Shown here: piece after piece, positions 39,068 through 58,854 of the stretch
How the letters are laid out: each line of letters opens with the position of its first letter
Position numbering within the stretch: the first letter of the stretch is position 1
Assembly (NCBI GenBank): GCA_963847705.1
Contig: CAWKBC010000014.1
Span: forward strand, 96,001 to 160,000
Direction: 5' to 3'
DNA: 64,000 nt
Source: an uncultured Pseudomonadota bacterium
GTDB lineage: Bacteria; Myxococcota_A; Polyangia; Fen-1088
Notes under the pieces: model-generated
What the model saw: the letters and a program-made list of their open reading frames with translations, nothing else
Databases searched by the model: none
What the model was told of the DNA's origin: nothing
Program-made: the position numbers and the translations under genes

Positions 39068-41641
39068 TTGCTTGCTCTTCACCTTCTGTCCGCCCTGCTC
39101 GCTTTAGCGCCGAACGAGGGCACCGAACCGCCCCATCTGGTCGCGGTCAAGACGCCGGCCCCGCCGCTCATCGACGGTCGCCTCGAAGATCCGGTCTGGC
39201 AGCTGGCCCCGGGCACCTCGGCGTTCACGCAATCCTTCCCTTTCGACGGCGGGCTGCCCTCGGAAAAGACCGTGCTGCGCGTGCTCTACGACGAGACGGC
39301 GATCTACATCGGGTTCGAGTGCGAGCAGCTCCACACGCCGATCGTCGAGCGCCTGACCCGCCGCGACCGCGACTCGGAGAGCGAGTGGGTCTACGTCAAC
39401 ATCGATTCGCGCAACGACGGCAAGAGCGCCTACATGTTCGCCGTCAACATCGCCGGCGTGCTCGCCGACGCACAGATCATCGACCAGACCACCTACTCCT
39501 GGGAGTGGGACGAAAACTGGGAAGCGAAGACCACCCGGACCAAGAAGGGCTGGTCGGCGGAGATCCGGATCCCGCTGCGGGTGCTGCGCTTCGACAGCAA
39601 GCTGCCGGTGCAGAGCTGGGGGTTCCAGGCCTCGCGCTTCATCGCCCAGCGGGAAGAGACCGACCTGTGGACCTACGTCCCGCGTGACGTCGCGGCGCCG
39701 ATCGCGTTCTACGGACGCCTCGATGGCCTCAGCGATCTCAGGGGGGCCGGCGCGCTGGAGCTGCAGCCCTTCGTCCTCGCCTCCGGCCAGCGGCGCGACG
39801 CCAGCCAGATGGCCGTCGGAGGCGGCACCTCGGGCAGCGCCTCGGCCGGCCTCGATCTCAAGTGGCACATCGCCCAGGACCTCACCTTCGACGCCGCGCT
39901 CAACCCGGACTTCTCCCAGGTCGAGCTCGACCAGATCATCCTGAACCTCGGCACCTACGAGACGTTCCTGCCGGAGAAGCGCCCGCTTTTCCTGGAGGGG
40001 ATCGACGCCTTCTCGTTCCCGATGCAGGTCTTCTATTCGCGCCGGATCGGCAGCGCGCCGGTGGCGCCCTCGCTGCGGAGCGATGCCTCCAGCAACGAAG
40101 AGCTGGTCAACCTCACGACGCCGGCGACGATCTACGGCGCCGGGAAGCTGGTCGGCCGCCTCAGCCCCAACTGGACGATCGGCGCGCTGAGCGCCCTCAC
40201 GGCCGCCAACAACGTCACCATCTACGACAACATCAACGAAAGAGAGACCCAGCGGCTGGCGGCGCCGATCACCGCATTCAACGTTCTGCGTCTCAAGCGC
40301 GAGCTCGGCAGCGGCGGCCACATCGGCCTCATCGGAACCGGCTCGACGACGTTCGAGAACGACGGCGGCTACCCCAAGCTGACCACCGAGAGCCTTCGCG
40401 AGCTGTGCCCCTCGGGGGCGACCCCGCCCGTCGGGAGCAACTGTTTCCACGACGCCTACGTCGGCGGCCTCGACGGTCTCTGGCGCTCGCCCTCGGGCGC
40501 CTACGTCGTCAACGGCGCGTTCATCGAGTCGTACATCCGCGGCGGGCCGGTGGTCATGCAGCCCGACGGGACGTTGATCGGCTCGGGCGCGGCGGCGCCG
40601 GGCGGGTGGCTGCGGGTGGCGAAAGAGGGGGGCAAGCACCTCACCTGGAGCGCGGAGTACACCGGCGCGGGGCGCCAGCTCGACTACAACGACCTCGGCT
40701 ACATGCAGCGGCAAAACGTGGAGACCGTGCAGGCGACTGTCGGCTGGCGGACGCTGGAGCCGGGCAAGCACACCGTCGACACCACCAGCACCCTGGTCGT
40801 CTCGGACAGCCGCAACATGTCCTGGCTCGATCTCGGGCAGGGCTACGAGCTGAACACGCGCCTCCACCTGCTCGACTTCTCGTCGGTGTTCCTGGCCGCG
40901 GACTACGCCCCCGCGCGCTTCGACGACCGCGAGGTCGGCGACGGCACCGCGCTCGAGCGCGCCGGCTACCTCGGCGGCAAGCTGGAGTACGACAGCGATC
41001 CGCGCCGCGCCGTCTACGCGACGATCGCCAACCAGACGCAAGTGATGGGCGCCGGCATCTACGCGACCAGCGTGCAGGCGAGCGCCCTGTTCCACGCGCT
41101 CCCGCAGCTCGACATCGAGATCATCCCGACGTTCACCTGGGCGGCCGGCGAGTACCGCTACGCCTGGCAGTCGGTCGGCCCGGACGACCCCTATCTGTTC
41201 GGCAAGCTGGCCGCCAAGAACGTCAGCGCCACCCTGCGCGCCAGCTACACCTTCACCCCGCGCCTCACGCTGCAGGCCTACGCGCAGGCCTTTCTCGCCT
41301 CCGGACATTTCTCCGACGTCCGCGCGATCGGCGCCCTGCCGAGCGGGCCCGGCGCGCCCCCGCGCCAGCCAGGCGGCACGGTTCACCTGTCGACGCTCGC
41401 CGGCTCTCCGGGAGTCATCCCCGGCACGAACCCCGACTTCGAAGAGGCGGCCATCAATGCCAGCGTCGTCTTCCGCTGGGAGTACCGCCTCGGTTCGACT
41501 CTCTATCTCGTGTATACCCGCTCACAAATTCCAGAGGTACAGAACCTGATGGGCCCGGCGATGCTGGCTCCGCGCGAGTTCAACCACGGCGCGGCGACCG
41601 ACGTGATTTTGCTGAAACTCTCATATTGGTGGGCCAGCTGA
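39068..41641 (+). CDS. CBM9-like/DUF5916-type large exported protein, probable outer-membrane barrel
   Basis: Signal peptide, PLIDGRLEDPVW, WSAEIRIP, NPDFSQVE, PEKRPLFLEG, FYSRRIG, terminal LKLSYW. Confidence 0.78.
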   Translation: MLALHLLSALLALAPNEGTEPPHLVAVKTPAPPLIDGRLEDPVWQLAPGTSAFTQSFPFDGGLPSEKTVLRVLYDETAIYIGFECEQLHTPIVERLTRRDRDSESEWVYVNIDSRNDGKSAYMFAVNIAGVLADAQIIDQTTYSWEWDENWEAKTTRTKKGWSAEIRIPLRVLRFDSKLPVQSWGFQASRFIAQREETDLWTYVPRDVAAPIAFYGRLDGLSDLRGAGALELQPFVLASGQRRDASQMAVGGGTSGSASAGLDLKWHIAQDLTFDAALNPDFSQVELDQIILNLGTYETFLPEKRPLFLEGIDAFSFPMQVFYSRRIGSAPVAPSLRSDASSNEELVNLTTPATIYGAGKLVGRLSPNWTIGALSALTAANNVTIYDNINERETQRLAAPITAFNVLRLKRELGSGGHIGLIGTGSTTFENDGGYPKLTTESLRELCPSGATPPVGSNCFHDAYVGGLDGLWRSPSGAYVVNGAFIESYIRGGPVVMQPDGTLIGSGAAAPGGWLRVAKEGGKHLTWSAEYTGAGRQLDYNDLGYMQRQNVETVQATVGWRTLEPGKHTVDTTSTLVVSDSRNMSWLDLGQGYELNTRLHLLDFSSVFLAADYAPARFDDREVGDGTALERAGYLGGKLEYDSDPRRAVYATIANQTQVMGAGIYATSVQASALFHALPQLDIEIIPTFTWAAGEYRYAWQSVGPDDPYLFGKLAAKNVSATLRASYTFTPRLTLQAYAQAFLASGHFSDVRAIGALPSGPGAPPRQPGGTVHLSTLAGSPGVIPGTNPDFEEAAINASVVFRWEYRLGSTLYLVYTRSQIPEVQNLMGPAMLAPREFNHGAATDVILLKLSYWWAS

Positions 41642-41752
41642 TTCGAGACTAGCGCCCACTAGTCATAGATCCTGGAACCCGGCTGGTCTTAGTCGCGGCG
41701 CGCCCGGACGCGGAGGTCGTTGAGATGACGGTCTCTGCTGGGTTGGGCGAGG

Positions 41753-41768
41753 TGGCACGATCGCTGCT
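41753..41768 (+). promoter_or_regulatory. Putative sigma54 -24/-12 promoter
   Basis: TGGCACG-ATCG-CTGCT has the GG-N10-GC spacing; about 30 nt upstream of ATG 41797. Confidence 0.65.
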
Positions 41769-41796: not shown

Positions 41797-41955
41797 ATGA
41801 CCACGACGAGGAAGAGCACGGACCTGAAAGCGAGGACGACGATCGAGCTCGGCGGTCTCAACGCCACCAACCACACCTGCGCTGGTCTCGAGGTCCGCCA
41901 GCCAGGCAACGCCGCGTCGCCATCGATCACAACTGCGGCGCCGGTCTCGTCTTGA
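41797..41955 (+). CDS. Short degenerate paralog of the repeat precursor (possibly a pseudogene)
   Basis: MTTTRKSTD-LKARTTIELGG-LNATNHTCAG-LEVR aligns with LKVKSTIKAGG-LGTANHNRSA-LKVR; a second unit-like segment (VAIDHNCGAGLVLRS) follows in a shifted frame. Confidence 0.55.
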   Translation: MTTTRKSTDLKARTTIELGGLNATNHTCAGLEVRQPGNAASPSITTAAPVSS

Positions 41956-42224: not shown

Positions 42225-42238
42225 CACGATCGATCGTG
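42225..42238. promoter_or_regulatory. Perfect 14-bp palindrome, candidate activator-binding site
   Basis: CACGATCGATCGTG, about 110 bp upstream of the second -24 element. Confidence 0.35.
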
Positions 42239-42345
42239 ATTAGCGTCCGCTAGTCACAGATCTCGGAAGTCTCTTGGTCAGAGGCTCGCCACGCTCGCGT
42301 CTCCAAATCGTCGGAAAATCTGGCTCGCTTTTATCGCGACCGCTA

Positions 42346-42361
42346 TGGCACGGTCGCTGCA
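42346..42361 (+). promoter_or_regulatory. Putative sigma54 -24/-12 promoter
   Basis: TGGCACG-GTCG-CTGCA, about 60 nt upstream of ATG 42421 (AGGGAG RBS). Confidence 0.72.
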
Positions 42362-42420: not shown

Positions 42421-43119
42421 ATGAAGACCACGACGACGACCACGACCGGCCTGAAGGTGAAGAGCGCGATCAAGGCTGGTGGCGGGCCTGGCTCGCTTGT
42501 CGCCAATCACAATCGCTCCGCACTCAAGGTCAAGTCGACGATCAAGGCCGGTGGACTCGGCACCGCCAATCACAATCGCTCCGCACTCAAGGTCAGGTCA
42601 GCGATCAGGGCCGGCGCCGTCGACGTACTGTCGGCCAACCACAGTCGCTCCGCACTCAAGGTCAAGTCAGCGATCAGGGCCGGCGCCGTCGACGTACTGT
42701 CGGCCAACCACAATCGCTCCGCACTCAAGGTCAGGTCAGCGATCAAGGCCGGCGGACTCGGCACCGCCAACCACAATCGCTCCGCACTCAAGGTCAGGTC
42801 AGCGATCAAGGCCGGCGGACTCGGCACCGCCAATCACAATCGCTCCGCACTCAAGGTCAAGTCAGCGATCAAGGCCGGCGGACTCGGCACCGCCAATCAC
42901 AATCGCTCCGCACTCAAGGTCAAGTCAGCGATCAAGGCCGGCGGACTCGGCACCGCCAATCACAATCGCTCCGCACTCAAGGTCAGGTCAGCGATCAAGG
43001 CCGGCGGACTCGGCACCGCCAATCACAATCGCTCCGCACTCAAGGTCAAGTCGACGATCAAGGCCGGCGGACTCGGCACCGCCAATCACAATCGCTCCGC
43101 ACTCAAGGTCAAGGAGTAG
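42421..43119 (+). CDS. Multi-repeat candidate peptide precursor (10 leader+core units, 232 aa)
   Basis: LKV(K/R)S(A/T)I(K/R)AG followed by GGPGSLVANHNRSA (x1), GLGTANHNRSA (x7) or AVDVLSANH(S/N)RSA (x2); good RBS; all repeats in frame. Confidence 0.85.
   Translation: MKTTTTTTTGLKVKSAIKAGGGPGSLVANHNRSALKVKSTIKAGGLGTANHNRSALKVRSAIRAGAVDVLSANHSRSALKVKSAIRAGAVDVLSANHNRSALKVRSAIKAGGLGTANHNRSALKVRSAIKAGGLGTANHNRSALKVKSAIKAGGLGTANHNRSALKVKSAIKAGGLGTANHNRSALKVRSAIKAGGLGTANHNRSALKVKSTIKAGGLGTANHNRSALKVKE
42451..43113 (+). repeat. Coding tandem repeat with 63/69/72-bp units
   Basis: Recurrent cacaatcgctccgcactcaaggtca; all unit lengths are multiples of 3. Confidence 0.95.
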
Positions 43120-43171: not shown

Positions 43172-45862
43172 TCAGATAGCACGACGTCCAACATCGGCCT
43201 GCGCCGATTCGTGCTTTTGAAGCCACGCTTCCACCTGCGCCAGATTCTTACCGAGGGCCGCCTTCTCGTACACGGCTCGAGCGTCCTCTGCCAGTCGACG
43301 AGCGCGGCTCTGTTCTCGGCCCGATTCCCACAGCGCCTTTGCAAGGGCGAACCAAGTGTCGGCCCGATCGATCGGATCAACACCATCCTGGTCCCCGCGC
43401 ATCTTGACGGCCCGCTCTAGCGGCTCGACTGCAGCAGCGCCTCGCCCTTCCGTCAGATAGCCGATACCGATTCCAGTCAAGGAATAGGCGAGGACCGGTG
43501 CTTCCTTGCCGAGCTCGCGCTGCCAGATGGCGATCGCCTCTTCGAACGATCGCCGCGCCTCGTCCGGTTTGCCAAGGGCGTTGAGAATTTCGCCGCGATT
43601 GTTCAGCTGACTGGCCAAGTCCGGGTGTCCTGGACCGAGCCTTTTGACCTGGATTTCGATCGATCGCTCGACGTGAACCAACGCTTCTTCGTTCCGACCA
43701 GCGCCCTCTAGCACGTAGCCAAGGTTCCCTTCGGACTTCCCGACATCAGGATGATCCGGGCCCAGCAGGGCCTTCTTGAGCGCCAGTCCTTCTGTGAGCG
43801 CCTGTACGCCTGACTCCGTATCGCGGTGGACAGCGTAGGCACATCCGAGGTTGTTGAGCGCCCACGCTCTTAACAACTCGTGTCCGCCGAGCCGCTTGAG
43901 CACCGCGTTCGCGGTCACGAACCATCTCTTGGAGTCCTCAAGCCGTGCTTCTTGATCCCCCACCACGAAGACCAGTGTGGTCGCAACCTCGGCACGGATC
44001 TCGTCGTGCCGTGACGCGTCCGCAAGACTGTAGGCCTCGACCAACGCTTTCTCGGCAGCGTGGGGGTCGTTGGTTCTCTGTTTCATTGTCCCGAAGAGTC
44101 CCAGAGATTCTGCCAGCAGCGGCTCATAGCCGACCGTGCGAGCTTCCAAAACCAGTGCTGGTGCGTTCTGCAGCGTCTCTTTCCACCTTCCGGCATCGAA
44201 TCGCGCTTTCGTTTCCGCCATCCGCTTCCGCAGATCCGCCACCTTAGCCACCTTAGCCGGATCGTCGGGTGGCCGAACGACGGCTCGCAGCGTCGGAACG
44301 TCCGCGCAGCGGTCGAGCGTCGCAAGGGCGTTCGTCGCGGAAACAGCATTCTCGACGACCTCTCCCGTGGCGTCGGCGAATACATCCGTGAGGGCGTGGA
44401 ATCCGTTGAGTCGCTCGTTCAGGCAGGACATACGCAAGTCCAGCACCTCCGGGGACTGCTCATGGCGGAGCTGCGTCGCCTCGCAAGTCTGCTTGTACAT
44501 GTTCGCCCAAGTCTGGGCGTAGCCGGTCATCGCGCGCGTGACCGTTTCGTAGACGTCGGCGGCGTAGCTCTTTCCCGTCCGCATGAATGCGGCATGAATC
44601 TGAGACTGCCGCGGGGTCTCGGGTTGATCGGGCGGGTGAAGCTCCCAAATGCCCGCCAACTTCTCGCCGGCGCCGTCGCAAAGGGCCCGCCTGTCGATCA
44701 AGCTCTGGCGGACCCCGAGGCCGACCAACACCGGCAGCATCGCCACCGTCGCACCAACCGCCCACTTTCGCCGTTCCGCGCGCGGGTCTTTGCCGAGCGC
44801 GGCGAGCAGCTCCGCCATCGACGGATATCGCTCCGCCGGCGCCGAGCGCAAACCGCGCAGCAAGATCCGGCGTACCCAGAATGGCACCTTCGTTCCGGGC
44901 GGCGCGGAGCGGATGGTCCCCTGCACGACGTTCGCGGTCAACTCGGTCAGTTTTTTCCCCGGGAACGGCCGCTCTCCGTAGAGCGACTCGTAGAGCGCCA
45001 CGCAGAAACTGAACTGATCGGTGCGCGCGTCGGTCTCTTTGCCGAAGAACTGCTCGGGCGCCATGTACGCGGGCGTCCCCATCATCGCGCCGGTCCGCGT
45101 GAGGCGCGCGTCGAACAGGCCGGAGACCGACGACTGCATCTCGGCGCCCGAATCGGCCAGGCCGGGATTGAGCACCAACGTCCCTTCGTCGACCGGAAGT
45201 GCACCTCGATCACGTAGCGGCACCCCGTTGTCGAGTGGCAGCGTCCCAGTGCCGACCTCGATGTCTCCGCGCTTCTGCCCTGGGGAGGTGGCACGCGCGC
45301 GGTGCTCCTTGAGGCCGGGCTTGTCGATCTGGCGCGCCAGACCGAAGTCCATGACGCGGACCTGGCCGTCGCGGCCGACCATCACGTTGTCGGGCTTGAA
45401 GTCTCGGTGGACGAGACCCTTCTCGTGCGCCGCGGTCAGACCGCGTCCCGCCGAGATGAAGATGCGCAGGATCTCCTGCCAGGTGCGCGGCTTCTGCTCC
45501 AGCCAGAAGGTCACGGTGTTCCCCTCGACGAACTCCATCGCGATGAAGACCTTGTCTTCGAACGTGCCGACGTCGTAGACGACGACCACGTTGGGATCCG
45601 ACAGGCGCGCGATCGCCTGCGCCTCGCGCAGGGTCCGCTGGCGCCCCTCCGTCATCGAGACGCCGTTGCCGGCCTTGACCCGCAGCAGCTTGACCGCGAC
45701 CTTGCGATCGAGCTCCGGATCGTACGCGGCGTAGACCTCGCCCATCCCACCGCGTCCCACCAGCCCCAGCACGACGTAGCGGCCGATGATCGCGCCGCGC
45801 CCGAGCGGCGTGGCGGCCGAATCGATCGGAATGTGCGAGGGGGTGGGGTTCGTCTTCGACAT
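43172..45862 (-). CDS. Transmembrane Ser/Thr protein kinase with C-terminal TPR repeats
   Basis: GRGGMGEVY, VAVK, HRDFKPDN, DFGLA, GTPAYMAPE, TM, then LGPDHPD-type TPRs. Confidence 0.93.
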   Translation of the reverse strand: MSKTNPTPSHIPIDSAATPLGRGAIIGRYVVLGLVGRGGMGEVYAAYDPELDRKVAVKLLRVKAGNGVSMTEGRQRTLREAQAIARLSDPNVVVVYDVGTFEDKVFIAMEFVEGNTVTFWLEQKPRTWQEILRIFISAGRGLTAAHEKGLVHRDFKPDNVMVGRDGQVRVMDFGLARQIDKPGLKEHRARATSPGQKRGDIEVGTGTLPLDNGVPLRDRGALPVDEGTLVLNPGLADSGAEMQSSVSGLFDARLTRTGAMMGTPAYMAPEQFFGKETDARTDQFSFCVALYESLYGERPFPGKKLTELTANVVQGTIRSAPPGTKVPFWVRRILLRGLRSAPAERYPSMAELLAALGKDPRAERRKWAVGATVAMLPVLVGLGVRQSLIDRRALCDGAGEKLAGIWELHPPDQPETPRQSQIHAAFMRTGKSYAADVYETVTRAMTGYAQTWANMYKQTCEATQLRHEQSPEVLDLRMSCLNERLNGFHALTDVFADATGEVVENAVSATNALATLDRCADVPTLRAVVRPPDDPAKVAKVADLRKRMAETKARFDAGRWKETLQNAPALVLEARTVGYEPLLAESLGLFGTMKQRTNDPHAAEKALVEAYSLADASRHDEIRAEVATTLVFVVGDQEARLEDSKRWFVTANAVLKRLGGHELLRAWALNNLGCAYAVHRDTESGVQALTEGLALKKALLGPDHPDVGKSEGNLGYVLEGAGRNEEALVHVERSIEIQVKRLGPGHPDLASQLNNRGEILNALGKPDEARRSFEEAIAIWQRELGKEAPVLAYSLTGIGIGYLTEGRGAAAVEPLERAVKMRGDQDGVDPIDRADTWFALAKALWESGREQSRARRLAEDARAVYEKAALGKNLAQVEAWLQKHESAQADVGRRAI

Positions 45863-45988: not shown

Positions 45989-48109
45989 CTATGGGTGCGC
46001 GATGACGATCAAAGTCTCAGCCCGACTGAGCACGCAGGCGAGCGCGCGCTCGAGCGTCTCCGGGTCGAGCGCGGCGAAGCTCTCGTCGAGGATGCGGGCG
46101 TCGAGCGGCTGCAAAAGCGAACGCGCAATGTAGAGCCGCCCGCGCTCGCCGTGCGACAGCTGCCAGCCGCTCTCGCCGACCAGCTGCTCGAGCCCCGACG
46201 GCATGCGCCCGAGGAGCGGCCCGAGGTCGAGCTCGCGGCAGATCGCTTCGGCCTCCGCGACGTCCTCGCGGCGCGGGGGCCAGGCGCGTCCGAGCAGCAG
46301 ATTGAAGAGGAGGCTGGCGGAGAAGACGTGGTTCTCGTGGAACTGCGGCGCCGCGCCCACGCGCGCCCGCCAGCGCTCGTCGCCGAGCGCGCTCCGGTCG
46401 ATCCCGTCGAGCTGCAGGCTCCCCGAGGAGGGCGCCCTCAGCCCGCAGAGCAGCGCCGCGAGCGTCGACTTGCCGCCGCCCGAGGGGCCTTCGAGCAGCA
46501 CCCGATCGCCGCGCCGAATCTCGAGCGCGCAGTCGTCGAGCACCGGCTCGCGGCGTCCGGGGTAGCGGAAGCCCAGGGCGCGGGCCGCGATGAGCACGCC
46601 CCCGTCGGTGGCGGGCACCGCCGGTGAGGCGGGCGACGAAGTGGCCAAGGAAGTCGCCGACGAAGTCGCCGAGGAAATTGCGGCGCTCGGGCGCGCGGCC
46701 GTCGCGTCGCCCGCCAGCAGATCGCCGATGTTCCGCCAGGCGATCGCCGCGGCGCCGAGCGCGGGGAAGGCCCGCGCCAACTTGCGGAGCGCGCTGGTGA
46801 CGAAGAGGAGGCCGCCCAGGCTGGCGGCGAACGCGCCCGGGCGCTGCGTCGCCTCGCCGAATCGCGGCGCCAGGATGACGAGGGCGCCGATCAGGAAACC
46901 GCGCGGCACGACCACGGTCAGCGCAGCGACCGCGCGATCGAGCGCGCGGCCTCGCGACGAATAGAGGGCGAGCGCGCGGTCCTCGTCGCGGTGCCACAGC
47001 TCGCTCGGCTGCTGCGCGACCAGCGTCCGTTGCCCGACCATGCGTTCGACGAGATCGTGCGTGAGCGCCAGCCGCTCGGCCGACCAGGCCCGGAGCGACC
47101 GCTGCACGCGCGCCGCGAGCGCCGCGGCCAGGAGTCCCCAGGTTGCCGCGAAGACCAGCTCGCCGACCGGCGCCACGCCGACCGCCAGCACGCAGAGGCC
47201 GGTGGCAAGCTCGAAGAGCCCCACCGCCGCAGTGAGGCCACCGCCGAGCGCCAGCGATTCGACCGCCTCGACGTCGGCGACACGCCCCATGAGCCGGCCG
47301 ATCCCGGCCGCGCGCAGCGGCTCGGTGTCGAGGCGCAAGAGGCCGTGCAGGATCCGATCGCGCAGCACCGCGCCGGCATCGATCGCCAGCCGGCCGGCCG
47401 CGCGCGACGAGGCGAGACGGACGGCGGCCAGGAGTGCGATGAGGGCGATCCACCCCCAGCCACCGCCCCCGAGGCTGCTCGCCCTCACGGCGCGCGCGCC
47501 GATCGTCCCCCAGAGCGCGACCAGCAGCGCGAGCTGCCCGACATAGCCCAGGAGCGCCGCCCCCAACCGGCGCCCGACGCCGGCGGCGCGCAGGGCCGCG
47601 CCGATCGAACGCCGCGCAGGGCGGAGCCGCGCCCCTTCGGCCACCCGCTCACCTCCGAGCGCCGCGGCCAGCAACGCCGCGCGCACGGATTCGGCGCGCG
47701 CCCCGGCGAAGCCCGCCTGCGCCACCGCCGCCTCCACGCCCGTCGGCGACGAGGCTTCGACCGGCGCGCGCAACAGCGCCGACAGCGCCGCGCTCGCGCG
47801 GACGGCGACGGTGCCGCCCGGGACCAGCAGACGCACGTCGGTGCCGGCGTGGCCGACGAGCCCCAGGAGCGCGCCCGCGCCGCCCCCCACGCGCAGAACC
47901 GCGGGCGCTTCGGCGCGCGCCCGCGACGTGAACACCGGCGCGACATCGGCGTAGCTGAGCTCGAAGCGATCGGATGGCCCTGGCTGCGCGATCCCGGCCG
48001 CCAACGCCAGCGCCGCGGTCAGCTCGTCGCGGCGCTCGAGTGGCCACAAGCAGTCGTCCAAGCTGCTGTTCGAGCCGGCGTTCGCCTTGGCTTCCCAGCG
48101 GGCGCTCAC
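45989..48109 (-). CDS. ABC transporter permease/ATPase, partner of the C39 transporter
   Basis: TMD, GPSGGGKST, LSHGERGR, ILDESFAALD; start overlaps the upstream stop; no C39 catalytic motif seen. Confidence 0.87.
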   Translation of the reverse strand: MSARWEAKANAGSNSSLDDCLWPLERRDELTAALALAAGIAQPGPSDRFELSYADVAPVFTSRARAEAPAVLRVGGGAGALLGLVGHAGTDVRLLVPGGTVAVRASAALSALLRAPVEASSPTGVEAAVAQAGFAGARAESVRAALLAAALGGERVAEGARLRPARRSIGAALRAAGVGRRLGAALLGYVGQLALLVALWGTIGARAVRASSLGGGGWGWIALIALLAAVRLASSRAAGRLAIDAGAVLRDRILHGLLRLDTEPLRAAGIGRLMGRVADVEAVESLALGGGLTAAVGLFELATGLCVLAVGVAPVGELVFAATWGLLAAALAARVQRSLRAWSAERLALTHDLVERMVGQRTLVAQQPSELWHRDEDRALALYSSRGRALDRAVAALTVVVPRGFLIGALVILAPRFGEATQRPGAFAASLGGLLFVTSALRKLARAFPALGAAAIAWRNIGDLLAGDATAARPSAAISSATSSATSLATSSPASPAVPATDGGVLIAARALGFRYPGRREPVLDDCALEIRRGDRVLLEGPSGGGKSTLAALLCGLRAPSSGSLQLDGIDRSALGDERWRARVGAAPQFHENHVFSASLLFNLLLGRAWPPRREDVAEAEAICRELDLGPLLGRMPSGLEQLVGESGWQLSHGERGRLYIARSLLQPLDARILDESFAALDPETLERALACVLSRAETLIVIAHP

Positions 48110-50881
48110 CGCGGCCGCTCCACGATCCGGCGCTCTTCGAGCCGCAGCCGGCGCCAGCGCTCACCCGACCAGGCCGCCGCCCGCACCCGCCGCTCGGCGT
48201 CGGCCAGCGCCGCATAACGCGAGCCCGGCTGCGCGAGCAGCGCCGCGGGGGCGCCGTCCTCGGCGACGCGGCCGTCCGCGATCACCAGGACGCGCGGAAA
48301 GGCCGCCGTCTCGTCGATGTCGTGGGTCACGCAAAACAGCGTCGCCGAGGACCAGCGGCGCCGCGCCCGCGCCAGCAGAGCCTGGCGCTGGTCGCGCGAG
48401 AGCCCCCGGAACGGCTCGTCGAGGATCACCAGCCGCGGCCGCTCGCGCAAAAGCCCGCGCCCGAACCGCACCCGCTGTCCTTCGCCGCCCGACACCAGGC
48501 CGCCCGCCTCGCCGAGCGGCGTCGCGAGCCCCTCGGGCAGCCGGCGCACCACCTCGCCGAGCTCCGCCTCGTCGAGCACGGCGCCGAACGCGTCGGGGGT
48601 GGCCGCCAGGCCGAACGCCAGGTTGTCGGCCAGCGACCGGTTCCAGAGATAGACGGCGGGATCGATCCAGACGGTCCGGCGGCGCAGCGCCTCGATCCCG
48701 GCGCCGTCGAGCGGCGCCCCGTCGATGCGGACCGTGCCGGTCGCCGGCCGGTGCCATCCGAGCAGCAGCCCCACCAGGCTCGATTTGCCGGCGCCCGACG
48801 CACCGACGATCGCCACCGCCTCTCCGGGCGCGATCGCCAGCGCGCCGACCTCGAGGATTCTGGTGACCGCCGGCCACCACGCGCACGTCGTCGAGCTGAA
48901 TGCGCACACCCGGCCTGACGTCGTCGGCAGGCGCGCCGGCGTCTTCTGTGGGCGTGGTCTGTGCGGCTCGAGCGGCGCCCGCGGCGTCGTCCTCGGGGGC
49001 GCCGAGCGGCTCGAGCAGCCGCAGGGTGAGGTTGCGCTGGGCCGGGATCTGCTGGACCAACGCGGTCAGCTCCTGGCCGAGCGCCGGCAACGACAGCGCC
49101 CAGTAGACGAGCAGCAGCGCCGTGCCGGGATCTGCCGTCGCGGCCGTCGCCGCTCCACGCCCGAAGAAGCCCACCAGCAGCCGCACCGCCAGCGCGAGCC
49201 CGAGCAGCGTCTGCGCGGCCTCCGCCGTCAGCGCCGCGCCGAGCGCCCGCCGCGCGGCCGCCACCCATTCCCGCAGGCGATCGCGATGCTCCCGCGCCAG
49301 CGCAGGCTCGCCGCCGTGCGTGCGCACCGCCACCAGCCCCAGCAGCCCGTCGAGGTAGAAGCGCCCCAACGCGCCCGCGTGGTTGCGCATCCGCAGATCG
49401 CGCTCCGCCACGGCCGGCTCGGCGACGAACGGGACCAGCAGCGCGACCAGCCCGAGCGCGATCGCCAACCCCGCGCCGCGCGGGTCGAGCCAGGCCAGTC
49501 CACCCGCGACGACCACGATCTCGATCCCGGTGCGGGCAATCTCTCCGCCCAGCGTCGGGAGCGCGCGCAGTCGGTGCAGGAGGTGCGCGCGCTCGGCCAT
49601 GTCCGAGACCGGTCGGCTCTGGAAGTAGCGATCTGGCAGGCGTGGAATCTTGCGCAGGTAGAGCGCGCGCAGCCGCTCCTCGAGCCGGGCCCCCGCGCGG
49701 CGCAAGCTCCCCGCCAGCGGGAGCTCGAGCGCGAGCAGCGCCACCAGCAGCACCACGATCGCCCCCGCGAGCGCCCGGGGACTGCGCGGCGCGCCGCCGA
49801 GGGCGTGGCCGGCGAGGCGCGAGAGGAATCCGGCGCTGCCGGCGCCATCCCCCACCGCGAGATCGATGAGCGCCCGGAACAGCAGGGCTTCGGCGACGGC
49901 GCCCAGCGCCGCCAGCACGACCCCGACGGCGAGCGCGGCCCAGCGCCCGCGCCCGTCGCGGACCAGCAGGCGCCAGAGCTCGGCCGCGGCGCGCGGGCGC
50001 GGCTCCTCGACGGCGGCGCGCAGCTCGGCCGGCAACGCCGCCTTCCGGACGTCGTCGAGCGGCCTGGCCGCCGACGCCCGCAGCAGGACGGCGCCGCGGA
50101 CCGTGACCTGCGCGGTGCCGTCCTCGGCGGCGGGCGCAGCCGAGGCGGTGGCGTAGATGGGCGGCACCAAGGGAGGTCCGTCGTCGCCCGCCCGGGCGAA
50201 CGCCAGCGAGTTGACCAGGCCGCCGGCTTCGGCGCCGGATGAGACCGCACCCGAGGCCACCAGCGCGGCGACCGTTCGTGTCGCGCCGTCGAGCGCGGCG
50301 ATCGCCGACCAGCCCGCATCGTCGAGAGCGCGGGCGATCAGCGCTTCGCCATCCGGCGCTCCCAGCGCGCGCAGCCGGTGAGCGAGCGGGCGGGTGAACG
50401 CGTCGCTGGCGGCGAACTCGCGGAAGGCGTCGGCGGGAACCGACATCCGGTGCACGTAGACGTCACGCAGGAACGTCTCGCGCCGCACCCACCGCCGCCC
50501 CCGCGCCGGGTCCATGACCTGCACGAAGCCGCCGTGCACGCGCCAGACGACCACGAAGTGAACCAGCCCCGACGGCAACCGCGTCACGACGATGGCGGGC
50601 AGCGCCTCCGCCTCGGCGAGCAGCAGGTGGTCGACCGGCATCATCACCTGCTCGGCGTCGAGCCCCAGGCTGGCCCCCAGCGTCTCCAGCGTGTCGATCG
50701 ACGTCCCGTCGACGGAGGTCTGGCAGGCCTCGCGCAGGCGGCCGTAGCTGACGCCGACGCCAAAGCCCTCCAGCAGGCACTTCAGGGCCGCCGGCCCACA
50801 GTCCATCGCCGAGGTCTGAATCACCTCCGGCGCGAAGAATCGCCGTGAAGCTCGCGACGGCGACGACGGCGACGACGACAT
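48106..50881 (-). CDS. Peptidase C39-containing ABC transporter (PCAT), single-base frameshift near 48858
   Basis: QTSAMDCGPAAL (Cys), HFVVVW (His), VMDPARG (Asp), TMD; the NBD (GASGAGKS, VSGGEGQR, ILDEP) is in the next frame, joined by removing one base at GATTC 48856-48860. Confidence 0.88.
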
Positions 50882-50911
50882 TTGGGCCACCCACGCTACA
50901 ATGACGGCCCG

Positions 50912-52042
50912 GTGGCATCCATCCCTCGCGCTCCCGGCGCCGACCGCGCCGAGCGCCATCTGACCGTCGCTGTCGCCGCCCACGAGCGCGCCATCGCGCT
51001 GCGGATCGCCGGCCGCTTCGCTCCGGCCGAGCAGGCCTGCCGCCGGGCGCTGGCGGGCTATACGGCCGCGGAGGGGGCCCGCCACCCCGACGTGGCCAAC
51101 GCGCTCTGCGAGCTGGCCACGACCCTGCAGGCGCGCGATCGCCCCACCGAGGCTGCCCGTGCCCTCCGCCGGGCGCTGGCGATCCTGCGCGCGCCCTCGG
51201 ACGATCCCGATCTGCTGCGCCTCCGGCTGCAAGCGCGGATTGCCCTGGCCGGCCTCGACCGCGCGCGCGGCGCCTACGGCGCCGCCGACCGCGGCTTCCG
51301 GGCCGTGCTGGCGGAGGCGCGGCGCCGGCTGCCGCCGCGCGATCCGCTGACGCTCGGGGTGCTCAACAACCTGGGCGTCCTGCGCAAGGCCGAGGGGCGC
51401 TACGCCGAGGCCGTCGGCTTTTATCGGCAGACGAAGCGCCTGCTCGGCCGCGATCGCCAGGCGCGCGCCACGCTGGAGCACAACCTCGGCGGCATCGCCC
51501 ACGCGCGCGGCCGCTACGCCGAGGCCGAGCCGCACGCCCGGCGCGCGGTCACGCTGCGGGCGGCGGCCGTCGGGGCGTCGCACCCGGCCTGGGCGGCCGA
51601 CGTCGCGGCGCTGGCGGCGGTGGTGGAATCGCGCGGTCGCCTCGACGAGGCGGCGGCCCTCTACCGCCGGTCCCAGGCGGTCTTCCGCCGCAAGCTCGGC
51701 GAGGCCAGCCTGGAGTTCGGCCTGGGGCTGGCCGGGCTGGCGGCCGTCGAGCAGCAGCGGGGGAACGTCGCCCGCGCCCGGTCGCTGTATGCGCGGGCGC
51801 TGCCGACGCTGGGGCGCCGCCTCGGACGCCACCATCCCGACGTCGCCTTGACCGTCAACAACCTCGCCGTGCTGGAGCGAAACGAGCATCGCCTCGGGCG
51901 CGCGGAGGCGCTGTTCCGGCGCGCGGCCGAGAGCCTGCGGCGCGCGCTCGGGGCGCGGCACCCACACACCGTCCTGGCGCGCGACAACCTGCGCGCGGTG
52001 ACTGCGGCACGGCTCAAGCCCACCCGCGTCACCCGCCGATGA
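50912..52042 (+). CDS. Tetratricopeptide repeat protein (kinesin-light-chain-like TPRs)
   Basis: Repeated G.RHPDVA..LNNL...G.Y.EA motifs; start uncertain. Confidence 0.82.
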   Translation: MASIPRAPGADRAERHLTVAVAAHERAIALRIAGRFAPAEQACRRALAGYTAAEGARHPDVANALCELATTLQARDRPTEAARALRRALAILRAPSDDPDLLRLRLQARIALAGLDRARGAYGAADRGFRAVLAEARRRLPPRDPLTLGVLNNLGVLRKAEGRYAEAVGFYRQTKRLLGRDRQARATLEHNLGGIAHARGRYAEAEPHARRAVTLRAAAVGASHPAWAADVAALAAVVESRGRLDEAAALYRRSQAVFRRKLGEASLEFGLGLAGLAAVEQQRGNVARARSLYARALPTLGRRLGRHHPDVALTVNNLAVLERNEHRLGRAEALFRRAAESLRRALGARHPHTVLARDNLRAVTAARLKPTRVTRR

Positions 52043-52052
52043 CCAGTCACTG

Positions 52053-53444
52053 ATGGCGGAGCCCCTCCTCGACCTGGTTGTGCGCGGGGGGACCATCGTG
52101 AACGCCGACGGGCGACAGCGGGTCGACGTGGGGGTCGCCGGCGGGCGCGTCGTTCAGCTCGGCGGCGCGATGACCGGCGCCCGCGAGCTCGACGCCGGTG
52201 GCCGCTTCGTCCTGCCGGGGGGCGTCGATCCGCATGTCCACCTCAACGTCGCCGAGCTCGACTCCAGCGAACCGGACTGGGTCGACGACTACACCAGCGG
52301 CTCGGAGGCCGCGCTGGCCGGGGGCGTCACCACCGTCGGCAACATGTCCTACGTCCTGCCCTGGGAGACCATCGCCGAGCGCGTGGCCGCCGAGTCGGCG
52401 CTGGTGGCGCGGCAGGCGATCGCCGACGTCTTCTTCCACGCCGTCGTGCTGACGCCGGGCCCCGAGCTCGTGGCCGAGGTGGGACCGGCGGTGGCGGCGG
52501 GTCAGTCGAGCATGAAGATCTTCATGTGCATGCCGTCCTTCGACGCCTGCGCCCCGGAGTTCAGCCGGCTGATGAAGGCCACCGGCGACGCGGGTGGAAT
52601 CGTGCTCATCCACTGCGAAGATCTCGCCACCATCGAATGTTGCACCGCCATGCTCTCGGCGCGGGCGCAGACCGCGACCGCGCACTTCGCCGAGAGCCGG
52701 CCGGTCGCCTCGGAGGTCATCGCGGTCGAGCGGGCCATCGCCATGTGCCGCGCCACCGGCGCGCCGACCTACATCGTCCACCTGTCGTCGGCGGGCGCGC
52801 TGGTGGCCGCGCGGGCGGCCCGCGCCGAGGGGCTCCCCCTCTTCGTGGAGACGCGCCCCCTCTACCTCTACCTGACCGAGGAGCGTTACCGCGACCCCGA
52901 CGGCGGCATCTACGTGGCCCAGCCGCCGCTGCGCGCCGACGTCGATTGCGAGGCCCTCTGGCGCGGCATCGCCGACGGCACGGTCGACACGCTCGGCAGC
53001 GATCATGCTCCCTGGACGCGCGCGCTCAAGCTCGACCCCAAGCTGGACGTCGCTCATCCGCGCCCGGGCGTGGCCGAGCTCGACACCATGTTGCCGCTCT
53101 TCTTCACCGAGGCGGTCGGCAAGGAACGGATCACGCTGGAGCGCTTCGTCGCCCTCACCGCCAGCAACGCCGCCCGCCTGTTCGGCCTCTATCCGCGCAA
53201 GGGGACGATCGCGGTCGGCTCCGACGCCGACCTGGTGATCTGGGAGACGCGCGGGCGGCGAACGATTCGCGACGAGCAGCTCTTCTCGCGCGCCGGCCAC
53301 ACCGTCTACGCCGGCCGGGAGATCACCGCCTGGCCAAGGACCACCATCCGCCGGGGCGAGGTGGTGTTCGACGACGGCCGCATCGTGGGTCGCCCCGGCG
53401 GCGGCCAGCCCGTCCCGCGCGGCAAGACGCAGCCGCCGCGCTGA
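52053..53444 (+). CDS. Dihydropyrimidinase/allantoinase-like cyclic amidohydrolase
   Basis: PGGVDPHVH, GGVTT, KIFM, IHCED, IVHLSS, GSDHAP, GSDADLVIW. Confidence 0.88.
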   Translation: MAEPLLDLVVRGGTIVNADGRQRVDVGVAGGRVVQLGGAMTGARELDAGGRFVLPGGVDPHVHLNVAELDSSEPDWVDDYTSGSEAALAGGVTTVGNMSYVLPWETIAERVAAESALVARQAIADVFFHAVVLTPGPELVAEVGPAVAAGQSSMKIFMCMPSFDACAPEFSRLMKATGDAGGIVLIHCEDLATIECCTAMLSARAQTATAHFAESRPVASEVIAVERAIAMCRATGAPTYIVHLSSAGALVAARAARAEGLPLFVETRPLYLYLTEERYRDPDGGIYVAQPPLRADVDCEALWRGIADGTVDTLGSDHAPWTRALKLDPKLDVAHPRPGVAELDTMLPLFFTEAVGKERITLERFVALTASNAARLFGLYPRKGTIAVGSDADLVIWETRGRRTIRDEQLFSRAGHTVYAGREITAWPRTTIRRGEVVFDDGRIVGRPGGGQPVPRGKTQPPR

Positions 53445-53516
53445 CTGTCCCGCGCGGCAAGACGCAGCCGCCGCGCTGACTGTCCCGCGCGGCGAGACGC
53501 AGCCCCCGCGCTGACT
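53412..53516. repeat. Three tandem 35-bp copies of the amidohydrolase 3' end
   Basis: gtcccgcgcggcaagacgcagccgccgcgctgact x3; the third copy has two mismatches. Confidence 0.92.
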
Positions 53517-56064
53517 ACCCCGGCTGGCGTGCGGCCAGCCAGCGGGTCACCTCGTCGGCTCGGCTCGCGAAGGCGGGCTGCCGGAGATAGGCCTTGTGGG
53601 CGCCGGTGGCCAGCCGAAGCGCGCGCTCCCGGTCGCCGCCCGATTCCCACAGCGCGCGGGCCAGCGCGAAGCTCGTCTCGGCCACCAACGCGGCGTCGTT
53701 TTCGTGCAGATCGCGGATGCGCCAGGCCCGTTCGAGCGGCGCGACCGCCACCGCCGGCAGGTGCTCGGCGAGGTAGCTCTGGCCGAGGCCGGCCAGGGTG
53801 TAGGCGACGATCGTGCTGTCCGCCCCGTAGGCCCGCTCCTCGATGGAGAGCGCCTGTCGATAGGCCGCGCGTGCCTCCTCGTGACGGCCCAGCTTGTCGA
53901 GGCTCTCCCCCTTGTTGGAGATGAAGGTGGCGACCAGCGGGTGCCCGGCCCCGACCTCTCGAGCCAGGTCGGCGATCGCCCGATCGAAATAGCCGACCGC
54001 CTCTTGGTTCCGGCCGACATCCGCCAGGACATTGGCCTCGTTGTTCAAGCTACGCGCCACATCGCCGCGGCTCACGCCTGCGTGGACTTTGAGCGCGACG
54101 GCGCGTTCTTCGTGGGCCAGCGCTTCCGGATAGCGCCCCTGGCTCTTCCGGTTGGTCGCGATGTGCGTCTCCAGCCAGGCCCGCAACCGCTCGTGCCCGC
54201 CGATCCGGTCGAGAATCGCATAGGCCTGGCCAGTCCAGTCATCGGCCTCGTCGTAACGTCCGAGCGCGCCCGACGTCCAGACCAAGAACACGATCGCCTC
54301 CGCTTCGGTCTCGTCGGCGTGCGACGCCTCGGCCAGCCAGGCCGCCTCCTTGATCGCTTCATGGCTCGCCGCGCCGTCATTCCCACCCGCCAGAACCTCG
54401 CCGAGCTGCAAGAGCGATTCCGCCAGCACCGGCGAATAGTGAATGCGGCGCGCGTCGACCACCAGCGCCCGCAGGTTGCTGGTGGCCGCCTTTTCGTTGC
54501 CCGCGCCATGCAGCACCTTGGCTTCGGCGATGCCCGCGCGGATCCGAGCCACCTCGTCGCGGGTCGCGGCATCCGCAGGCGGCGACAGGACGTTGCGCAG
54601 CAGCTTGGGATCGGCGCACAGCTCCAGGGTGCCGAGCGCGTCCGCGGCGGCGACGGCGTTGTCGACCACGTCGCCGTCGGCCTGTGAAAGCAGCTGGGTC
54701 AGTGACTTCGCGCCGTTCAACCTCTCGCCCAGGCAGGCCATCCGCAGGTCGAGGACCTCGGCCGATTGCTCGCCACGGACCTGGGTTGCCTCGCAGGCCT
54801 CGGTGTACATCCCGCTCCAGCGCCCGAGATAGTCCGTCAGCAGGCGGTCGACGCTGGAGAAGCTCTCCGCCGCGTAGGAGCGGCCGCTCCGGTCGAACGC
54901 CTGAAGCGCCCGGCGCTTGACGCCGCCGTCCCAGACCCCCGCCAGCCTGTCACCGGCGGCCCGGCAGAGGCGCGGGCGCTCGGCAATCTGAACGGCGCGC
55001 ATGCCCCCCACGCAGGCCGCGACGACCAGCGCCGCCGACGTCAAGCGCCGGTGCCGCGCGACCCCCTTTTTCGCCCGCACCCAGCTGCGCTGGAGCGCGG
55101 ACCGCGGCCGCGCCGCTTCTGCCGCCGCCAGGCGCCCCACCACGGCCATCGCGGTCGGGGGGCGCAACGCCGGGTTGGCGGAGAGGCAGTCGACGCACAG
55201 CCGCGCCAGCTCCTCCTCGACCGGGGTTGCTTCCGGCGGCAGCGGCCATTTCAGGGTGGGCCTGTCGTCGATCTGCTCGAAGGCGGGTCGGCAACCAAAC
55301 AGGGTCTCGTGGAGGATGACGCCGAGCTGCCAGACGTCGGACCGCCGATCACCGCGCTGACCGAGCAGCGTCTCCGGCGGCATGTAGTTGGGCGTCCCGC
55401 CGTTCATGGTCGTGCTGGCCGACAGCTCGATGGCCAGACCGAAGTCCGAAATCACCAGGCGGCCGTCCTCCATGCGCAGCACGTTCTGGGGCGTCACGTC
55501 ACGGTGGACGATCCCGACGGCGTGGATCGCCGCCAGCCCGGCGCAGATCGCCCGGGCGTCCGTCAGGCGCTCCCCGAGCGGCCTGGGCTCCTTGCGGGTC
55601 CCCTGATGCAGCAGGGCGCGCAACGTTCCCCCGGTCCCCAGCTCCATGGTCACGAACCAATGCCCGTCCGCGTGACCCAGCTCGTACACCCGACAGACGT
55701 TCGGATGACGAATGGCGCGAGCGACCTTCACCTCCCGCGCGAGCCGCATGATCCAGCTCCGCTGGCGCGCCCGATCGGGGCGCAGAACCTTGATTGCAAT
55801 CAGCTCGCCCAGCACGCGATCCCAGGCACGGTAGACCGTTCCGCTCCCCCCCTGTCCCAGGATCGCTTCGATCTGATAGCGCCCCGCCAGGACCGCCGCG
55901 ACGCCGAGCTCGGTTTCCGGCGCCACCTCGAACTGGTGCGATTCCGCGGACATCGTCACCGAATGCTCGGGCTCGCTCCCGGAGAAAACAGCCTTCTGGG
56001 AATCGTCCGAATCGTCCGCCAACGCGCCCTCCTCCCTGCACCGGCCGGTGCCGTTGTATATCAT
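53515..56064 (-). CDS. Transmembrane Ser/Thr protein kinase with C-terminal TPR repeats (paralog of 43172-45862)
   Basis: GQGGSGTVY, IAIK, HRDVTPQN, DFGLA; shares the CEATQ..EQS.EVLDLRM.CL.ERL segment; start uncertain. Confidence 0.9.
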   Translation of the reverse strand: MIYNGTGRCREEGALADDSDDSQKAVFSGSEPEHSVTMSAESHQFEVAPETELGVAAVLAGRYQIEAILGQGGSGTVYRAWDRVLGELIAIKVLRPDRARQRSWIMRLAREVKVARAIRHPNVCRVYELGHADGHWFVTMELGTGGTLRALLHQGTRKEPRPLGERLTDARAICAGLAAIHAVGIVHRDVTPQNVLRMEDGRLVISDFGLAIELSASTTMNGGTPNYMPPETLLGQRGDRRSDVWQLGVILHETLFGCRPAFEQIDDRPTLKWPLPPEATPVEEELARLCVDCLSANPALRPPTAMAVVGRLAAAEAARPRSALQRSWVRAKKGVARHRRLTSAALVVAACVGGMRAVQIAERPRLCRAAGDRLAGVWDGGVKRRALQAFDRSGRSYAAESFSSVDRLLTDYLGRWSGMYTEACEATQVRGEQSAEVLDLRMACLGERLNGAKSLTQLLSQADGDVVDNAVAAADALGTLELCADPKLLRNVLSPPADAATRDEVARIRAGIAEAKVLHGAGNEKAATSNLRALVVDARRIHYSPVLAESLLQLGEVLAGGNDGAASHEAIKEAAWLAEASHADETEAEAIVFLVWTSGALGRYDEADDWTGQAYAILDRIGGHERLRAWLETHIATNRKSQGRYPEALAHEERAVALKVHAGVSRGDVARSLNNEANVLADVGRNQEAVGYFDRAIADLAREVGAGHPLVATFISNKGESLDKLGRHEEARAAYRQALSIEERAYGADSTIVAYTLAGLGQSYLAEHLPAVAVAPLERAWRIRDLHENDAALVAETSFALARALWESGGDRERALRLATGAHKAYLRQPAFASRADEVTRWLAARQPG

Positions 56065-56099: not shown

Positions 56100-57581
<1,482 letters not shown>

Positions 57582-57582
<1 letters not shown>

Positions 57583-58758: not shown

Positions 58759-58854
58759 ACCGCCTCCCCCTCTCCGCTCCGCCCGCAAACCGCCCCCGCC
58801 CGGCCACCAATCCGCCCCCGCCCCTGCGAAGTGGAGCCGAGGTGAAACGCGAGT

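Follow-up and report, generated by a model that had tools for sequence, protein, structure and literature searches.

A 232-aa precursor protein made of ten tandem cassettes is encoded at positions 42421..43119 (+ strand) of the window, the 64,000-nucleotide stretch of DNA that was analyzed. We assign a probability of about 0.68 to the reading that this precursor is the signal gene of a multi-phylum module comprising the precursor, a Peptidase C39-containing ABC exporter (PCAT), a receptor-type Hanks kinase, and a transcriptional output, in which an autoinducing peptide would be sensed by the kinase. Judged by sequence comparison, the precursor likely belongs to a cell-to-cell communication family that spans several Gram-negative phyla and of which we found no description. 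A candidate receptor kinase, a predicted sigma-54 promoter, a palindrome, an FHA-domain activator, and a decayed second precursor together point to signaling. None of these, nor a frameshift in the C39 gene, had figured in the original prediction for this locus. The host genome comprises 6.1 Mb in 48 contigs, and since the gene order of the locus is matched in Polyangia and Myxococcales records, the host is taken to be a myxobacterium.

The precursor gene was delineated from the open reading frame list, its translation, a tandem-repeat search, and its homologue family, and a GGAG ribosome-binding site lies 5' of its start. Parsing of the protein yielded exactly 10 cassettes of the form LKV[KR]S[AT]I[KR]AG-core-NH[NS]RSA (42451-43101), followed by a C-terminal leader cut down to LKVKE. 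The core is GGPGSLVA in the 1st cassette, AVDVLSA in the 3rd and 4th, and GLGTA in the 2nd and the 5th to 10th. These results bear out the ten cassettes, three core variants, and truncated end originally described. Tandem Repeats Finder gave the array (period 63, 9.5 copies, 93% matches) a score of 957, versus 196 for the runner-up among the 19 rows for the window. The N-terminus, MKTTTTTTTGLKVK, contains no hydrophobic stretch and hence no Sec signal, as had been claimed; this was read off the sequence rather than taken from a predictor. Because two neighboring units (42850-42975) are identical in DNA and no contig spans the array, the cassette count is possibly off by about one unit; among the contigs of two sequencing runs, none crosses the array or reaches the frameshift in the transporter gene. 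Relatives of the precursor have 1 to 14 cassettes per gene. Upstream lies the decayed second precursor gene (41797..41955, + strand; E 0.0036 against profile A1), in which one degenerate cassette is followed by loss of frame; locus L043 has an intact five-cassette gene in its place. A genome search found no copies of the precursor other than this decayed neighbor.

A direct homology search identified 11 multi-cassette homologues. A two-cassette family profile, built from 16 pieces, matched 1,916 clusters at 50% identity and was found in 31 of 61 related genomes, and a DNA pattern detected 70 stretches among GTDB genomes, from Acidobacteriota, Planctomycetota, Verrucomicrobiota, Myxococcota, and a few others. 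Viral contigs were rejected as carriers of the family, since none of 29 pattern matches was confirmed. The family unit is LKVK[ST]xVKAG, then a variable core, then NH[NS]. Its consensus, L-K-V-K-[ST]-x-V-K-A-G, was derived from 845 distinct cassettes in 317 sequences; positions -8 to -3 were set by the search pattern, and the free positions -2 and -1 are AG in 80% of these cassettes. Cores are 4 to 6 residues long in 673 of the 845, are rich in Gly, Leu, Ala, and Ser, contain 1.0% Cys, and have no modifiable residue in common. The motif after the core is NHN in 73%, NHS in 16%, and QHN in 6%. The original prediction was to be given up if homologues lacked both the division into constant and variable segments and a link to C39 transporters; the homologues keep the division and are linked to C39 transporters across phyla.

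Family genes open with the leader half, of which MKIKTNVKAG is an example of the shortest form. The gene ends after NH-x in 146 of 180 cases, within 4 to 8 residues of it in 114 of those 146, and 34 of the 180 precursors end in a leader and a short core with no NH-x. Single-cassette genes of 28 to 34 residues also exist, seven of them in tandem in locus L164. Since single-cassette genes and last cassettes end 4 to 8 residues past NH[NS], the active part of the family peptides must lie within core-NH[NS] plus a few residues. The cationic spacer to which the original prediction had drawn attention is the leader of the next cassette.

Databases did not describe the family. NCBIfam has no model for the precursor or 25 homologues, the matches it gave being due to chance or, for one fused entry, to its TPR part; no Pfam family was found on more than 2 of 66 family members; and an Atlas search with the family returned "hypothetical protein" clusters alone. 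In the open literature, we found no account of the precursor family, no paper combining two of six family motifs, and no paper on a signaling peptide with a eukaryotic-like kinase, C39, and Myxococcota. A description beyond the open literature, for example in a genome-mining supplement, is possible. Precursors with G[KR][LI]xxNH cores are often solitary in myxobacteria (L074, L088, L094, L095, L097, L099, L101, and L105), and this core type also occurs in Planctomycetota and Acidobacteriota (L106, L114, and L139 too); such cores are possibly a signal common to several phyla. Some acidobacterial precursors (L149:5957-6553, L108:2780-2917, and P0012) carry FNPQPDPPG cores, a motif that occurs in other small hypothetical proteins. 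Some Acidobacteria also have a leader-NHN remnant or precursor just before, or fused to, secreted beta-propeller/RCC1/HAF-repeat proteins (L107:7358-8359, L123:5606-6250, L163:7311-8738, and P0042).

Domain matches and alignment to PCAT1 identified a PCAT gene at 48106..50848 (- strand), interrupted by a one-base frameshift near 48858. The catalytic Gln, Cys, His, and Asp of its C39 domain are intact and align with those of PCAT1, and the Cys, His, and Asp motifs are kept in 49 of 52 distinct C39 orthologue domains. A further ABC exporter subunit (ABC2), with no match to C39, was placed by domain search at 45989..48109 (- strand); its gene adjoins the C39 gene in relatives and in other phyla, and it is likely the partner of the C39 subunit. 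Over the 61 genomes, which include kin and are not independent, transporter and precursor occurred together in 29, the transporter alone in 6, the precursor alone in 2, and neither in 24. Five transporter-only genomes gave no precursor match even with a broader profile. Export genes (HlyD/C39/ABC2) are present in 19 of 45 non-myxobacterial precursor loci, and the recurrent order in other phyla is precursor, TPR-only protein, HlyD-like adaptor, C39-ABC, ABC2. The TPR-only protein (50882..52042, + strand; start uncertain) has no hydrophobic segment, accompanies precursor and exporter across phyla, and is the neighbor tied most tightly to the exporter. A search with one query found no HlyD-like adaptor in this genome, and the adaptor is also missing from the transporter loci of the genus. 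A DUF5916 protein with a CBM9-like N-terminal domain (39068-41641), whose synteny with the precursor extends through the genus, could provide an outer-membrane route for the peptide. It and a dihydropyrimidinase (52053-53444) were rejected as parts of the system, as both are syntenic within the genus and absent from the loci of other phyla.

Double-glycine leaders carry hydrophobic residues at -7 and -12 on an amphipathic helix, as described in the available text of PMC10885120. The precursor had been likened to such leaders on the basis of Ile at -4 from the AG junction; this Ile is present in 10 of 10 cassettes and follows the hydrophobic -4 rule, but a classical double-glycine leader is not what the cassettes contain. 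Positions P2-P1 are Ala-Gly in all 10, not GG, GA, or GS; -7 is Lys or Arg and -12 is Ser or Thr, again in 10 of 10. Shifting the cut by one residue gives GG, GA, or GS in about two thirds of family cassettes but places Lys at -4, and many first leaders in the family are just 10 residues long. We therefore only infer cleavage by C39 after AG, because the leader follows the -4 rule and departs from the GG/GA/GS and -7/-12 rules. The caveat that C39 cleavage alone would release 21- to 24-mers stands: no second protease was found as a recurrent core neighbor among the recurring neighbor clusters of the family loci. No modifying enzyme recurs there as a core neighbor either. A protein of about 440 aa with no Pfam match is encoded next to a precursor or a kinase in five loci, four from myxobacteria and one verrucomicrobial (L039:13144-15081, L073:43-1452, L089:6855-8267, L090:6985-8397, and L112:7125-8573). 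Its Atlas lead was DUF6065 on 14% of one cluster, and it has no match in this genome; it is possibly an accessory modifying or trimming enzyme. In one lineage, a JmjC/cupin gene and a second gene of no assigned function lie between a precursor-ECF-kinase module and the exporter (L034:7400-10380 and L035:7408-10457).

Myxobacteria, Acidobacteria, and Planctomycetes have numerous membrane Ser/Thr kinases whose sensor domains are TPRs. The candidate receptor in the window belongs to this architecture, with a Hanks-type Ser/Thr kinase domain, a transmembrane helix (aa 366-384), and a helical TPR ectodomain (aa 393-890). Its gene (43172..45862, - strand) lies tail-to-tail with the precursor gene, with 52 bp between the stop codons. 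Genes that recur around family members encode the C39 exporter pair, the TPR-only protein, a Ser/Thr kinase anchored in the membrane and bearing a large outer domain, and either an ECF sigma factor or an FHA/sigma-54 activator. Among 40 myxobacterial loci fetched on the precursor match alone, with four weak profile matches left out, a kinase gene lies within 1 kb of the precursor in 25 and a kinase or ECF gene in 27. For comparison, positions no more than 1 kb from any of the 5 kinase-TPR genes of this genome make up 0.16% of its length; for any kinase, a generous zone around 75 kinase-domain matches covers 8.4%. Where both ABC2 and DUF5916 are visible, the interval between them holds kinase and precursor in 8 loci, neither in 4, only the precursor in 1, and only the kinase in 0. 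In 45 loci of other phyla, an ECF gene was found in 21 and a kinase in 20. Five non-myxobacterial genomes (5.8-9.5 Mb) contain 11 to 38 ECF genes each, so that approximately 2 to 6% would be expected per 14 kb, and most ECF-kinase pairs in these genomes have no precursor alongside. Partner genes are absent from 13 of the 40 myxobacterial loci, two of them at contig ends, and from 11 of the 45 others. A histidine kinase/response regulator pair was found in 4 loci, all non-myxobacterial.

The structure predicted for the ectodomain is a TPR superhelix (pLDDT 93.7) whose nearest solved folds are the peptide-binding TPR domains of kinesin light chain (KLC) and LGN. Its A helices carry conserved Asn motifs next to single variable positions, and its conserved Cys residues suit a periplasmic site. 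In the loci of other phyla, all 21 readable kinases have a hydrophobic segment after the kinase domain, and one neighboring kinase has a beta-propeller in place of the TPRs. Domain search also located a second kinase-TM-TPR gene in the window (53515..55956, - strand; start approximate), divergent from the FHA activator gene, which is a possible second receptor. Two orphan receptor-like kinases elsewhere in this genome (G000:C32:66521-69264 and G000:C29:354980-358573) have no precursor beside them; one orphan is 87% identical to the window kinase in the kinase domain and 53 to 63% in the ectodomain, and another is paired with a myxobacterial ECF gene.

The outer end of the kinase diverges far more than its surroundings. 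Compared with four close relatives, the window kinase has a dS of 0.27-0.45 in the kinase domain (aa 19-180), and the ABC2 gene has a dS of 0.24-0.42 against three relatives. Past aa 530 of the kinase, dS ranges from 1.3 to saturated (over 3) and dN is 0.23-0.59 against the four relatives. In L031, L032, and L043, the kinase domain is 94 to 96% identical to that of the window and adjacent genes 82 to 97%, versus 44 to 67% for the distal ectodomain. These values read as old alleles swapped by recombination and still under purifying selection. As the tail-to-tail layout makes them adjacent, the distal end of the kinase and the precursor can move together, as in agr and comQXP. After two truncated kinases were dropped from 28 tail-to-tail pairs, the main cores differed in 26 of 26, and 22 of the 26 precursor genes contained a second, different core besides the repeated one. 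Because this is the common pattern, the strain-specific 7:2:1 ratio of cores, from which the original prediction derived a putative peptide mix, is probably incidental. Against this reading, similar cores did not go with similar ectodomains in 10 of 11 tests (the first 3 gave p values of 0.79, 0.84, and 0.014, and 8 refined tests gave 0.31-0.84); as most ectodomain identities were 45 to 65%, these tests had little power. A GG(R)PGSLVA core occurs both in the window and in L031, but the ectodomains of the two are just 52 to 63% identical. In agr and comQXP cassettes, the signal gene adjoins the sensing end of the receptor, and the flanking sequence diverges much less than either. The present system differs from those cassettes in export, maturation, and receptor chemistry, and no thiolactone or prenylation enzyme is present here.

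Upstream of the precursor gene is a predicted sigma-54-type -24/-12 promoter (42346..42361, + strand), whose TGGCACG-N4-CTGCA fits the sigma-54 consensus. It is preceded, at a distance of 89 bp, by a palindrome, TGA[CT]TAG-N6-CTAGTCA (42237..42256), which is likely the enhancer to which a sigma-54 activator binds. Motif search found the same arrangement (41646..41768, + strand) ahead of the decayed precursor, with a palindrome at 41646-41665 and a sigma-54-type promoter at 41753-41768. With at most 1 mismatch, the palindrome has two sites in the 6.1-Mb genome, both 87 to 89 bp before a precursor promoter, one for the gene at 42421 and one for the decayed gene at 41797. In 52 myxobacterial upstream regions, the precursors preceded by a sigma-54 site numbered 20 among 25 that are kinase-convergent, 1 among 9 that are ECF-linked, and 11 among the remaining 18, against a random genome background of 6%. 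The palindrome precedes 13 of the 25 kinase-convergent precursors, and a different motif is common to the upstream regions of 6 of the 9 ECF-linked precursors (further motif backgrounds, 0.17% and 0.6%); both motifs were counted in the very sequences that had served to define them. Promoter and palindrome fit a loop in which the peptide would induce its own gene.

In Myxococcus, FHA activators connect kinases with sigma-54. The candidate output regulator here is an FHA-domain sigma-54 activator (enhancer-binding protein) at 56100..57582 (+ strand), with a frameshift near 56388, and 20 of 35 transporter-bearing genomes have an orthologue no more than 9 kb from the C39 gene. FHA domains bind phospho-Thr, according to the available text of PMC2875238. 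Many acidobacterial loci have an ECF43-type sigma gene beside the kinase; these neighbors match the TIGR02999 sigma factor and carry Q[PAT]TA at the ECF43 phosphorylated motif, the type of motif described at that site in ECF43 (PMC13147305). As far as the available parts of two papers go, ECF43 factors are activated by direct phosphorylation by kinases like PknS (PMC13147305, PMC7826278). There is no ECF43-type sigma gene at the window locus, and an ECF43-type query found no match in this genome.

These features suggest the following mechanism. The precursor would be cut after each Ala-Gly by the neighboring C39 ABC exporter to give short secreted peptides, each consisting of core-NH[NS] and a C-terminal extension that may be tolerated or trimmed by some further protease. 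Since no HlyD-like adaptor was found in this genome, export here would reach only the periplasm; in lineages with the adaptor it would cross both membranes. The peptide would bind in the TPR groove of the outer domain of the adjacent kinase, and a phospho-Thr relay would pass the signal to the FHA activator here and to an ECF sigma factor in other lineages. By turning on the precursor gene, the FHA/sigma-54 activator would close an autoinduction loop for quorum sensing or kin signaling. Repetition of the core would provide more signal per transcript. As for the second core, it may be directed at a second receptor or may mark an intermediate step in a change of specificity.

Other functions for the precursor were weighed against signaling. 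Unmodified bacteriocin-like peptides, in which C39 cleavage alone would produce cationic 21- to 24-mers that attack other cells and the kinase would sense self, immunity, or competition, are an unlikely explanation. Bacteriocins are among the exports of PCATs, as are toxins in Gram-negative bacteria (PMC10986499, available text), the GLGTA 21-mer has a net charge of +4, and toxin-immunity pairs are also marked by diversifying allele exchange. However, the cationic part is the next leader and is absent from the products of single-cassette genes and last cassettes, the cores are short and rich in Gly, Leu, Ala, and Ser, and the recurrent neighbors are signal-transduction genes, with no small immunity gene among them. 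It is quite unlikely that the peptides form a cell-autonomous or contact-range signal, remaining in the producer's periplasm or acting on the cytoplasmic TPR-only protein and reporting export or envelope state rather than density. The lack of an adaptor match here and in the genus, and the close tie of the exporter to a TPR-only protein without a hydrophobic segment, favor such a signal; against it, the adaptor is found in 19 of the 45 non-myxobacterial loci, and a private signal would need neither a different core nor a swapped receptor domain in each strain.

An amyloid or beta-arch protein, in which LKVKSxVKAG strands and an NHN ladder would stack into fibers or a solenoid, with the cores as loops and C39 acting as in Fap, is very unlikely. 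The 21-residue period, alternating hydrophobic pattern, and invariant Asn-His would suit such a structure, and the C39 domain matches FapD weakly (E 0.001). AlphaFold returned no fold for the precursor (pLDDT 50.6, pTM 0.19), which is weak evidence, as amyloids are often missed, and family searches gave no match to functional amyloids of the Fap, curli, or HET-s type; the genes open with the leader half and mostly end just past NH-x, some encode a single cassette of 28 to 34 residues, and C39 is here fused to an ABC exporter. We regard as similarly improbable a cyanobactin- or dikaritin-like RiPP precursor whose cores would be cyclized or modified by enzymes encoded elsewhere. The variable cores between conserved flanks, the NHLP bacteriocin exporter as top match of the transporter N-terminal region, the protein of about 440 aa flanking precursors in five loci, and the JmjC gene of one lineage all speak for it, but except for the 440-aa protein, itself without a match in this genome, no modifying enzyme is found in at least 3 loci, and the cores share no modifiable residue.

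Of the precursors invoked as analogies in the original prediction, yeast alpha-factor is apt as a multi-copy signal precursor, and the comparison with cyanobactins and dikaritins is not supported, since no modifying enzyme or macrocyclase recurs. Like the fungal alpha-factor/Kex2 repeat proteins and both RiPP classes, the precursor holds several cores between constant recognition sequences, but it is associated with a bacterial PCAT, not Kex2 or PatA/PatG, and no sequence relation was found. Neither the window neighbors nor the recurring neighbor clusters include PatA/PatG/PatD, DUF3328, Kex2-type, or cyclizing or oxidizing enzymes.

The proposed signaling module most resembles ComABCDE/Blp in logic and Phr in its duplicated cores and is a member of neither. 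As in ComABCDE/Blp, a C39 ABC transporter is associated with a short peptide whose leader it cuts in ComA/ComC (PMC10885120, available text), a membrane kinase adjoins the peptide gene, and alleles are strain specific. The differences are the diderm hosts, the polyprotein precursor, the Ala-Gly leader without a -7/-12 hydrophobic helix, the Hanks Ser/Thr kinase with TPRs in place of a histidine kinase, and the FHA/sigma-54 activator or ECF output. Rap-Phr/RRNPP systems likewise have TPRs, here the candidate peptide sensor, and adjacent receptor and propeptide genes, and phr genes have undergone internal duplication, with signal copies that are identical or have diverged (PMC5199041, available text). 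RRNPP receptors are cytoplasmic, however, and their propeptides use Sec and re-import; here the TPR domain follows the membrane helix of a kinase, although a soluble TPR-only protein also accompanies the system, export is by a PCAT, and the precursor N-terminus lacks the hydrophobic stretch of a Sec propeptide. The kinase-TM-TPR architecture is shared with the ECF43/Hanks-kinase pairs PknS-EcfK of Xanthomonas and PknT-EcfP of Vibrio. The window locus has an FHA/sigma-54 activator and no ECF, and the available text of PMC13147305 reports no peptide ligand or precursor gene for PknS.

Whether the module represents a widespread class of peptide communication in Gram-negative soil bacteria is an even bet. 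In such a class, polyproteins processed by dedicated PCATs would yield core-NHN ligands of eukaryote-like kinase-TM-TPR receptors, with a swappable ectodomain-plus-precursor cassette giving each strain its own dialect and a single gene serving two receptors. If true, bacteria would have a counterpart of plant peptide/receptor-kinase signaling, and the TPR receptor kinases that drive ECF43 sigma factors and FHA/sigma-54 activators would gain their first class of ligands. The logic of secreted autoinducing peptides is already known; no known family tested matches the precursors, their leader motif, the class of receptor, or the outputs. RRNPP is described from Bacillota, as is most peptide quorum sensing (PMC10075063), and the available text of a 2024 paper gives PCAT roles beyond toxin export in Gram-negative bacteria as lacking evidence (PMC10986499). 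PknS, a receptor of the kinase-TM-TPR type, phosphorylates an ECF43 sigma factor, and the ligand or activating signal of its periplasmic TPR domain is still open in the part of PMC13147305 available. The family provides short, cheap-to-synthesize candidate ligands matched by adjacency to candidate receptors, which makes the ligand question directly testable, and the 26 distinct kinase-precursor pairs would offer orthogonal channels for immediate use.

The assembly contains one-base frameshifts in the transporter gene, in the activator gene, and, near 58240, in an unrelated gene for a PUA-domain SAM methyltransferase (57582-58800). They were the three frame breaks seen across 53 matched regions (82 kb); one more split gene lies elsewhere. 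The transporter junction is in frame in 5 of the 6 relatives in which it was compared. Assembly error is the simpler reading of the frameshifts; that the system is decaying in this strain has, in our judgment, about one chance in four. Three near-perfect 35-bp repeats (53412-53516) overlap the end of the dihydropyrimidinase-like gene and extend to the stop codon of the second kinase gene.
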